NCBI RefSeq assembly: GCF_003334335.1
Contig: NZ_QOWQ01000167.1
Direction: 5' to 3' (one strand)
DNA length: 600 nucleotides
Origin: Escherichia coli
GTDB taxonomy: Bacteria; Pseudomonadota; Gammaproteobacteria; Enterobacterales; Enterobacteriaceae
Below, piece by piece: positions 1-539 of the stretch. The position numbers and the translations under genes are program-made. Position 1 is the stretch's first letter. Every line of letters starts with the position of its first letter. The notes beneath the pieces are model-generated. The model was given only the letters and a program-made list of their open reading frames with translations, was not told where the DNA came from and did no database searches.

Positions 1-191
1 AGACACTGGTCCAGCCACTTCAGGTAATCATCGTCGCCCTTCCACTGGTTATCCCAGCCCTCAGGCTTCACTTTAAAGTACGGCGGGTCCGTGACTATCA
101 GGTCAACAGAATTTTCGGGTAACGACCGGATAAATTCCAGGCAGTCGGCGTTGATTAACTCACAACTGGATATTTTTACAGTATTAAGCAT
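1..191 (-). CDS. DNA amino-methyltransferase (probable N6-adenine, beta-class), 5' portion only; the gene runs off the left edge of the window
   Basis: Hand translation of the reverse complement from the ATG at 191..189 gives MLNTVKISSCELINADCLEFIRSLPENSVDLIVTDPPYFKVKPEGWDNQWKGDDDYLKWLDQCL, uninterrupted to position 1. An in-frame TGA sits immediately upstream (197..195), so the ORF cannot start earlier. The motif 'SVDLIVTDPPY' (DPPY encoded at 89..78) is the catalytic motif IV of amino-methyltransferases; its position ~35 residues from the N-terminus is the beta-class arrangement (YhdJ/CcrM/M.PvuII-like). D rather than S before PPY favours N6-adenine over N4-cytosine. This ORF is absent from the supplied track, presumably because it has no stop codon inside the window. 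Confidence 0.85.
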   Translation of the reverse strand, partial: MLNTVKISSCELINADCLEFIRSLPENSVDLIVTDPPYFKVKPEGWDNQWKGDDDYLKWLDQC

Positions 192-202
192 GGATCATTA
201 AG

Positions 203-210: not shown

Positions 211-223
211 TGATAGGCTCATT

Positions 224-242
224 CTGCTTTTGCGCAAAGCAG
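224..242. repeat. short palindrome (7-5-7), candidate operator or leader hairpin upstream of the methyltransferase gene
   Basis: 'CTGCTTT' (224..230) and 'AAAGCAG' (236..242) are exact reverse complements separated by 'TGCGC'. Lies 33..51 nt upstream of the methyltransferase start codon. Confidence 0.45.
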
Positions 243-283
243 TGGGCCTGAGGTTTGCTTGTGATCCGGACGCATGAGCAGAT

Positions 284-314
284 GGCTGGTGAGTGCCCCT
301 AACACCCACCAGCC
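284..314. repeat. GC-rich inverted repeat / stable hairpin, function unknown
   Basis: 'GGCTGGTGaGTG' (284..295) pairs with 'CACcCACCAGCC' (303..314): 12 positions with one mismatch (292/306), 7-nt loop 'CCCCTAA'. Not followed by a T-tract on either strand, so not a canonical terminator. Confidence 0.55.
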
Positions 315-327
315 GCCCATTTACCAC

Positions 328-355
328 AAATAAAAAAGCCTTCACTGCGGAAGGC
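328..355 (-). terminator. putative Rho-independent terminator of the 65-aa ORF
   Basis: Minus-strand transcript would read GCCUUC-CGCAGU-GAAGGC (6-bp stem 338..343 / 350..355, 6-nt loop) followed directly by UUUUUUAUUU (337..328). The stem is short (4 GC pairs of 6), hence moderate confidence. The ORF's stop codon is embedded in the stem. Confidence 0.5.
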
Positions 356-539
356 GTCTGTAACAACCGAACTGATAGTCTGCCAGACCCGCCATAACCA
401 GCTGGGTCAGTATTAACTGGCAGCGTTCGCGTGAAAGGTAAGTATTCTGCGCAATCTCCCCGACTGTCGCCGGTTCGGTGGCACTTAATTCATTAAACAC
501 CACTCTGGCGGTTTCTGTCATATCCTGCTGTTTTAGCAT
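342..539 (-). CDS. small (65 aa) hypothetical protein, putative winged-helix/HTH DNA-binding regulator
   Basis: Part of the supplied 77-aa minus-strand ORF (342..575). I place the start at the ATG at 539..537 (MLKQQDMTETARVVFNELSATEPATVGEIAQNTYLSRERCQLILTQLVMAGLADYQFGCYRRLPQ) because it has an SD-like 'AAGGG' (552..548) 8 nt upstream, whereas the track's start at 575 is a TTG with no usable SD spacing. The stretch 'TVGEIAQNTYLSRERCQLILTQLVMAGL' has the helix / turn / recognition-helix pattern seen in winged-helix regulators. The stop TGA (344..342) lies inside a terminator-like hairpin. Coding status is moderately supported; the functional call is by eye only. Confidence 0.6.
   Translation of the reverse strand: MLKQQDMTETARVVFNELSATEPATVGEIAQNTYLSRERCQLILTQLVMAGLADYQFGCYRRLPQ

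Follow-up and report, generated by a model that had tools for sequence, protein, structure and literature searches.

RNase III processing hairpins, known in phages from the lambda N leader and the T7 R1.1 type, control the translation or the stability of downstream or upstream mRNA, and structured cis-regulatory 5' leaders that mask the ribosome-binding region include translational operators and riboswitch expression platforms. At the DNA level, the C-box operators of restriction-modification controllers are inverted repeats near a small HTH gene and a methylase gene, and the Chi sites of E. coli, which attenuate the RecBCD nuclease and, when correctly oriented, stimulate recombination, are defined by their sequence and need no hairpin. 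The late regions of prophages are also known to encode short sRNAs (PMC4104026, PMC7547250). Methylases of the M.EcoGII family, which methylate adenine in any context in both DNA and RNA, are found widely among lambdoid prophages, Stx-converting ones included, as well as in plasmid prophages of the N15 kind. M.EcoGII itself, a 349-aa adenine methylase, is non-specific, harmful if constitutively expressed, and silent in lysogens (Murray et al., PMC5778455), which gives tight control of such an enzyme a rationale; phage 1720a-02 has been named as the carrier of a very similar methylase (PMC5778455). Here, we describe a hairpin that precedes a methylase gene of this family in a lambdoid prophage of E. 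coli and that we consider rather probably to be helix P1 of a conserved structured 5' leader ahead of M.EcoGII-family phage methylases, where it would act in cis at the post-transcriptional level.

The window, that is, the whole stretch of 600 nucleotides that was analyzed, belongs to the late region of a lambdoid prophage whose genes are read on the minus strand. It matches lambdoid prophages in 2,283 of the 5,426 complete E. coli genomes as well as Stx-converting and related phages, among which 1720a-02 is the best phage match (97.7%). In an annotated relative (L001), the order of features, all in the sense of the window's minus strand, is Q, a pR'/tR'-type unit, a 65-aa ORF (ORF65), a terminator, the hairpin, the 349-aa methylase gene, tRNA-Ile, tRNA-Arg, tRNA-Arg, and the lysis genes; the short transcript of pR'/tR' lies upstream, outside the window. 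The features of the window itself are collected in Table 1. The domain search with ORF65 returned weak matches only (TrmB, MarR, and HTH_24), and gp51 of phiKO2 is annotated as a wHTH protein. A terminator equivalent to the one behind ORF65 stands ahead of the leader in all phage groups and is annotated as such in SfV, N15, and phiKO2, being in the last two the terminator annotated directly after the late promoter. The terminator scan of the window reported just this terminator and a weak one on the plus strand (201-219), and the promoter scan found no promoter-like site in the whole window. An apparent extended −10 element (TGTGAAAAT) upstream of P1 in some phages was dropped because it is conserved neither in the window type nor in the N15 type.

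Table 1. Coordinates of the features in the 600-nt window
Feature	Position	Strand	Basis or remark
ORF65, small winged-helix-like protein	342..539	minus	ORF list, annotation of the relative, weak domain matches
Intrinsic terminator after ORF65	331..362; stem 355..338, then TTTTTTATTT (T-run)	minus	Terminator scan
Conserved A/U-rich spacer and AUGGGC (320..315)	315..330	minus	Invariant TGGGCG
Full match to leader model R1	222..321	minus	90 bits, E 1e-20, model positions 1-99 of 99
P1 hairpin	284..314	minus	12 bp, one G·U on the sense strand; inverted-repeat search and folding
Chi octamer GCTGGTGG	306..313	minus	Read from the sequence, inside the 5' arm of P1
3' bulge AUCU (283..280) and GCUCAU (279..274)	274..283	minus	3' strand of the P1 extension, or else 5' strand of P2
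P3 hairpin CUGCUUU-GCGCA-AAAGCAG	224..242	minus	7/7 pairs changed on both sides
Last leader part, conserved GAGCCUAUCA motif and stem reaching the start codon	193..223	minus	Window MFE
DNA methylase gene, 5' end	1..192; ATG 192..190	minus	PF01555, M.EcoGII/M.EcoGI family, 349 aa

Several observations concern the surroundings of the leader. The same leader was found behind several unrelated upstream sequences. Phages as different as N15 (gp51), phiKO2 (gp51), PY54 (ORF59), and Hafnia yong2 (QXN68774) carry a wHTH gene like ORF65 along with the methylase module. Such a gene is a frequent but non-obligatory neighbor of the methylase in seven phage types (lambdoid, Morganella, Hafnia, phiNP, N15, phiKO2, and PY54); in the N15/phiKO2 group, it is located upstream of the late promoter, not downstream. 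About 60-170 nt past window position 600, the relative L001 (9160-9270) carries a pR'-like promoter (TTGATT...TGGTAAATT) followed by a strong terminator (CCCGCCGCCTGGCGGG and a T-run), with another Chi after it, a unit that is expected to give a short 6S/StxS-like late leader transcript. In Serratia phage OS31 (L213 415-476), a sub-threshold match to isrK (27 bits versus 50, E 0.018) covers a short terminated unit approximately 100 nt upstream of the leader, which is possibly the late-promoter short RNA of that phage.

The inverted-repeat search placed the two 12-nt arms of P1 at positions 284-295 (GGCTGGTGAGTG) and 303-314 (CACCCACCAGCC), with 92% complementarity and 7 nt between them. On the sense strand, this gives a 5' arm GGCUGGUGGGUG (314..303), the loop UUAGGGG, and a 3' arm CACUCACCAGCC (295..284). 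The coordinates, the 12-position stem with a single mismatch, and the 7-nt loop had all been given in a preliminary description of this DNA, which is confirmed in each of these points. Folding of both strands, the check that it had proposed, showed 284-314 to be far more stable than shuffled sequences, with −17.6 kcal/mol (z −4.6) on the plus strand and −23.5 kcal/mol (z −5.4) on the minus strand, none of 200 shuffles being as stable in either case. The sole mismatch becomes a G·U pair on the minus strand, where the stem lengthens to 14 bp, and inclusion of the flanking AUGGGC and GCUCAU (326..276, minus strand) yields −30.7 kcal/mol (z −6.1). P1 begins 16 nt past the T-run of the terminator, close to the distance of about 15 nt first estimated. 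The hairpin had been taken not to be a terminator since no T-tract follows it, which holds on both strands and agrees with the terminator scan. Poor conservation of the element at homologous loci, named at the outset as a result that would speak against it, is clearly not what we observed, as the stem is kept across homologous methylase loci. Hairpin P1 is real, and no other element of the leader is as stable or as well supported. The preliminary description was thus right about the hairpin, but it overlooked the larger motif around P1 and the Chi octamer in its sense arm.

Homologues were sampled independently of the hairpin, through the methylase protein, by tblastn against phage records and by searching viral contigs with the phiKO2 methylase as the seed. 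A viral-contig scan with the methylase alignment returned only relatives of at least 95% identity and was used as an unconditional population sample rather than for covariation; the 79 close relatives sampled through the methylase protein serve as this population sample for P1. Every homologous methylase of enterobacterial lambdoid, N15/phiKO2/PY54-type, and Hendrixvirinae phages shares one layout, in which a terminator is followed by an A-rich spacer ending in RUGGGCG and, at a constant position, by a hairpin of 11-12 bp. P1 is found at the equivalent position in Hafnia, Morganella, and Serratia phages as well, where its sequence is often wholly different and yet paired. Seven loci found by BLAST (75-99% identity) show no change in the sense 5' arm or in the AUGGGC before it; their 3' arms differ by C-to-U and A-to-G changes that keep a G·U pair, or by one-base bulges. 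With the 5' arm as the query, 120 loci were found in viral contigs; they comprise approximately 30 hairpin variants, all paired except for one class that has no 3' arm. Over larger distances, the arms of PhiR46_1 (CGCAGGACAAG/CUUGUCCUGCG) differ from those of N15 (CGCGGGACGAG/CUCAUCCCGCG) by two compensatory changes and one repaired mismatch, and further P1 arms were read in NAR688 (GCUACAGCAUG/CAUGCUGUAGC), PY54 (GCUGCAACCACG/CGUGGUCACAGC), L250 (GGCUGGUAAGUG/CAUUUACCAGCC), and L252 (GGCUGGCUAGUG/CACUGGCCAGCC), with L271 likewise showing a differing P1 sequence at the homologous position.

Since a MAFFT alignment across the groups mis-registers P1, pairs were counted on a model-based alignment (A5), where 11 of the 12 pairs of P1 have changed on both sides and 91.3% of the cells are paired. 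This alignment was fitted to a covariance model and therefore leans towards structure; the independent check is the folding of single sequences, by which all 44 complete distinct P1 variants form the hairpin, with ΔG values of −9.8 to −28.5 kcal/mol. Pairs at homologous loci are thus kept by compensatory change, the generic hallmark of a conserved structured RNA, here on a model-fitted alignment. The leader as a whole is at least as conserved as the adjoining coding DNA of the methylase, with 84-85% nucleotide identity compared to 76-80% for the 5' part of the coding sequence (SfV, mEp460, and Kp4866).

P1 is part of a leader of about 135 nt in total, located between the intrinsic terminator and the start codon of the methylase. 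A covariance model of approximately 100 nt (R1), composed of helices P0, P1, P2, and P3, matched 97 times in 100 sources, each time a short way upstream of the methylase. The covariation of the whole structure amounts to 0.34; slid controls give no more than 0.14 and shuffles 0.135, with 0 of 500 shuffles attaining 0.34. The invariant RUGGGC motif directly 5' of P1 has two mutually exclusive and equally conserved partners, both compatible in essentially all sequences. Pairing with the proximal partner, (G)CYCRU (GCUCAU, 279..274, in the window), would lengthen P1 by 5-6 bp over a 3' bulge of 4-6 nt to a total of approximately 18-20 bp and is the MFE fold of the window leader. Pairing with the distal partner, GCCCAY (GCCCA, 247..243, in the window), would form the long-range helix P0, which closes a three-way junction and is the MFE fold of the SfV and N15-type leaders. 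The five pairs of the P1 extension are 100% compatible, with one-sided, wobble-preserving changes only, and P0 is invariant and 99.7% paired. N15-type phages have GCGAU..AUCGC at the position of P3. The closing pair of P2 covaries (T-A/C-G/A-T), yet all lambdoid sequences carry two A·C mismatches in this helix; as drawn, it contains 100 A·C cells in the lambdoid leaders, and we do not claim that P2 forms there. In addition to the helices, the motifs UGGGCG, GGCCCA, and AGCYUA are invariant and unpaired.

Two departures from this arrangement were seen. In one viral contig, L271 (539-637), the leader motif lies approximately 160 nt further upstream, and an apparent small cysteine-rich ORF is inserted before the methylase start. 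The Vibrio/Aeromonas-type relatives (L273-L289), whose methylases are more distant homologues (approximately 59-61% identity), have a different, strongly structured leader in the roughly 125 nt upstream together with a good SD; this leader has an 11-bp closing helix (GCCUUGAGUAC/GUAUUCAAGGC) and two internal hairpins (ΔG −51 kcal/mol, z −4.6).

The wobble pairs bear on the question of which strand, and which nucleic acid, is under selection. In the P1 extension, the variable cells comprise 58 G·U and no A·C on the sense strand. The 79 close relatives include 49 perfect palindromes, 13 of the window type with one G·U, and 9 of the phiP27 type with two G·U; their P1 cells hold 35 G·U, 3 A·C, and 6 other mismatches, and variants that break a sense pair occur once or twice. 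In the phiKO2-type group, imperfect P1 variants are few, and they have A·C mismatches, the counterparts of wobble pairs on the antisense strand. The strand call from wobbles is therefore clear for the sense strand in the P1 extension and in the E. coli-type P1, and contradictory for P2 and the rare phiKO2-type variants. A sense RNA is favored by the population pattern, by the restriction of changes in the P1 extension to G·U, and by the constant placement and orientation of the element with respect to the methylase start, and we infer that RNA, not DNA, is the functional form of P1. In the E. coli-type group, where the 5' arm with its Chi is nearly invariant, part of the constraint may act on DNA.

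How such an RNA might act is suggested by what surrounds the methylase start. No canonical SD was found before the methylase AUG in any of the groups, the best anti-SD duplex being no better than −4 kcal/mol, compared to −13.5 kcal/mol for a consensus SD. In the fold of the window, GGAUCA (270..265) pairs with UGAUCC (193-198 region, minus strand) directly 5' of the AUG. The GGAUCAC of lambdoid leaders is identical to part of the 3' end of 16S rRNA, and a duplex of the UGAUCC before the AUG with the GGAUCA stretch of 16S rRNA has −9 kcal/mol; the leader GGAUCAC could thus be a mimic of the anti-SD. Given its position between an intrinsic terminator and the start codon in a Q-dependent late operon, the leader would be made only on read-through, when antiterminated RNA polymerase passes the upstream terminator. 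P1 would then organize a leader fold that keeps translation of the toxic, SD-less methylase low or timed. Alternatively, P1 may be a double-strand-specific determinant of processing or stability, such as a protective hairpin or a site of the RNase III type, and would in this way uncouple the methylase mRNA from the upstream RNA; the predicted 20-bp helix with its 4-nt 3' bulge fits the size rule for RNase III (dsRNA of roughly two helical turns, in many cases interrupted by an internal loop), size alone being compared. With a leader made only on read-through, the lack of an SD, the pairing 5' of the AUG, and the toxicity of M.EcoGII, a cis-acting leader that limits or times methylase synthesis would be the most economical reading. 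A more specific proposal, which we put forward as tentative and on balance unlikely, is that the leader constitutes a new class of riboregulators specific to promiscuous M.EcoGII-type phage methylases, in which RUGGGC alternates between CYCRU, giving the long P1 hairpin, and GCCCAY, giving the three-way junction, and thereby gates methylase synthesis during lytic growth. Such a switch would respond to a protein, to a metabolite like SAM or SAH, or to RNase III.

The hairpin also marks a recurrent mosaic junction (window positions 302-322). In PhiR5_1-type phages (L006), ORF65, the terminator, and the 5' arm are kept, after which the sequence passes into the region ahead of a nanS-p-like gene and the methylase is absent; in LLS (L007) and Eeyore, the leader stands behind unrelated genes. 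Decayed versions of P1 with up to 4 G·U are present in the Sakai prophages Sp4 and Sp11 (L291 5152-5262; L292, between ECs_1086 and ECs_1087) and in contigs of the L048/L084/L092 type. In Sp4/Sp11 and the L048 type, P1 is followed by A/T-rich DNA and a 588-bp gene that replaces the methylase; its annotation reads AraC-family regulator in Sp4 and phage regulatory protein in Sp11. In L095, the 3' arm and the P2 region are partly duplicated. Within the methylase coding sequence of L001 (~8000-8013), a double Chi palindrome is arranged back to back (CCACCAGCTGGTGG).

A cis-acting RNA has to be weighed against explanations at the level of DNA, the nearest of which is provided by Chi itself. The exact octamer is read at 313..306, and the plus-strand arm at 285-292 (GCTGGTGA) is one base short of it, so that Chi is a real sequence property of the P1 arm and may be a functional Chi in E. 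coli. One could hence suppose that the hairpin exists as a Chi site, mostly as a back-to-back pair, to shield the linear phage DNA from RecBCD or to promote recombination through RecBCD, and that the RNA fold is incidental. This appears improbable to us, although the octamer is placed on the late-sense strand and kept in 74 of the 79 close relatives, with both strands carrying it in the 49 perfect palindromes; hardly any change is seen in the 5' arm across E. coli, Shigella, Klebsiella, Citrobacter, and Morganella-type phages, in contrast to a drifting 3' arm; the 21-kb prophage segment of L001 is rich in Chi (7 late-sense, 3 on the other strand); and mosaic breakpoints fall at the hairpin. 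However, Chi is absent from P1 in Hafnia, Serratia, Yersinia PY54, phiKO2-type, and N15-type phages, whose hairpins keep the stem through compensatory changes, and one of these phages, N15, has E. coli as its host. Phage Eeyore has lost Chi (GCTGGAGG) by a change at a site that does not pair in its variant, and the conserved block far exceeds 8 bp and includes further covarying helices. The near-invariance of the G-rich 5' arm can be explained by RNA pairing alone, because a G-to-A change breaks the pair and a C-to-U change on the other arm does not. Since the homologous hairpins of phages outside the E. coli type keep their stem without Chi, Chi cannot explain the element and is probably a secondary, DNA-level property of P1.

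An inverted repeat of 12 bp with a 7-bp spacer, adjoining a wHTH gene that recurs beside the methylase in the seven phage types listed above, could also be a double-stranded DNA operator for a dimeric protein, for example, for ORF65 as a C-protein-like controller or for the methylase, and a symmetric change in the half-sites would mimic base-pair covariation. We nevertheless hold such an operator to be quite unlikely. The hairpin and leader persist behind an unrelated gene in LLS, Eeyore, L053, L123, and Serratia OS31, and in N15 and phiKO2, the late promoter and terminator separate the wHTH gene from the hairpin. Many variants have unequal arms (12 and 13 nt), bulges, or G·U-type asymmetries that fall mostly on one strand, and the 5' arm is constant while the ORF65 proteins diverge strongly. 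Moreover, wHTH dimers do not typically have half-sites spaced 19 bp apart, which we counted against the operator. A protein-binding palindrome is thus disfavored, given that pairing rather than sequence is conserved, that bulges and G·U pairs are tolerated, and that the hairpin is kept without the wHTH gene. It had been one of three functions offered in the preliminary description, of which an RNA processing or stability element in a read-through transcript comes closest to the comparative data; the third, part of a small RNA, found no support. We regard it as very improbable that the hairpin is a piece of a separate small RNA or that it terminates or pauses transcription on one strand, even with short sRNAs being known from prophage late regions. 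Of 4,227 Rfam models searched against the window at E up to 10, none reached its gathering threshold, and the best, the Pseudomonas sRNA P26 (244-314, plus strand), is a weak, non-significant resemblance (16.6 bits versus a gathering threshold of 36, E 0.77); Rfam returned nothing for the leaders of N15, phiKO2, Hafnia, SfV, and Serratia. In all cases, the element is joined to a leader that runs to the methylase ATG. An Hfq-dependent prophage sRNA of the AgvB/AsxR/EcOnc or StxS kind was rejected, as the window has no fitting promoter or terminator, the sequences (AgvB, AsxR, and EcOnc03) differ, and the Hfq-CRAC peak table of E. coli O157 Sakai has no peak at the related Sp4 and Sp11 copies, which is weak evidence, given that these copies are without the methylase and that uninduced cells do not express the late operon. 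The Sakai Sp12 stretch examined contains no such locus, and the Pas sRNA preprint does not describe it. An intrinsic terminator was discarded on the ground that the hairpin is followed by AUCUGCUCAU on the sense strand and by GCCCAUUUACC on the antisense strand, with no U-run. REP/BIME elements, which occur in hundreds of copies between genes of the core chromosome, were ruled out as well: the element was found in 1,597 of 5,426 E. coli genomes at 1-5 copies each (median 1), and all inspected contexts are prophage late regions. This settles whether it is a genome-wide repeat and bears out the initial impression that it does not match REP. Nor does it correspond to a lambda-type nut/boxB (5-bp stem, GNRA-like pentaloop, boxA), as P1 has a stem of 12-14 bp and a non-conserved loop of 3-7 nt and lies in the late operon.

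The element is unannotated in RefSeq in 30 of 30 cases among the E. coli matches listed, is absent from Rfam 15, and is not mentioned in the literature that we searched. It is best described as a new candidate family of structured leaders that serve a phage gene in cis-regulation or processing, with the unusual extra feature that, in E. coli-type phages, one arm is at the same time a Chi octamer. As a candidate for the catalogue of phage cis-regulatory RNAs, it is carried by about 30% of complete E. coli genomes. With its position behind a terminator, its lack of a ribosome-binding site, and its covarying stem, the leader would provide a concrete control point for the methylase beyond its assignment to the late operon, and the combination of an RNA helix with a single or double Chi at a recurrent mosaic junction makes it a tractable case of joint selection at the RNA and DNA levels.

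Compared to the described systems, the leader has in common with structured cis-regulatory 5' leaders its conserved helices, unpaired motifs, mutually exclusive pairings, the lack of a free SD, and its association with one gene family; it differs in that no ligand, protein partner, known aptamer class or fold, or Rfam family was identified for it. The phage RNase III hairpins share with it an irregular helix of approximately 18-20 bp, an asymmetric bulge, and the location in an untranslated spacer of a phage operon upstream of a gene; in contrast to these, with which no sequence relation was found, P1 is part of a larger multi-helix leader in which its basal strand has a second partner, and cleavage is here conjectured from the predicted fold. 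Intrinsic terminators such as tR' are likewise G+C-rich stem-loops in a late-operon leader, and P1 lies 16 nt from a genuine one, but it has no U-run and its stem of 12-14 bp is longer than usual. A small HTH gene and a methylase gene near an inverted repeat recall the C-box operators, whereas here the repeat is located after a terminator in a transcribed leader, has unequal arms, and persists without the HTH gene. Finally, the sense arm of P1 shares the exact octamer with the Chi sites of E. coli, on both strands in most close relatives, but unlike these sites, the element keeps its structure in homologous loci that have no Chi.
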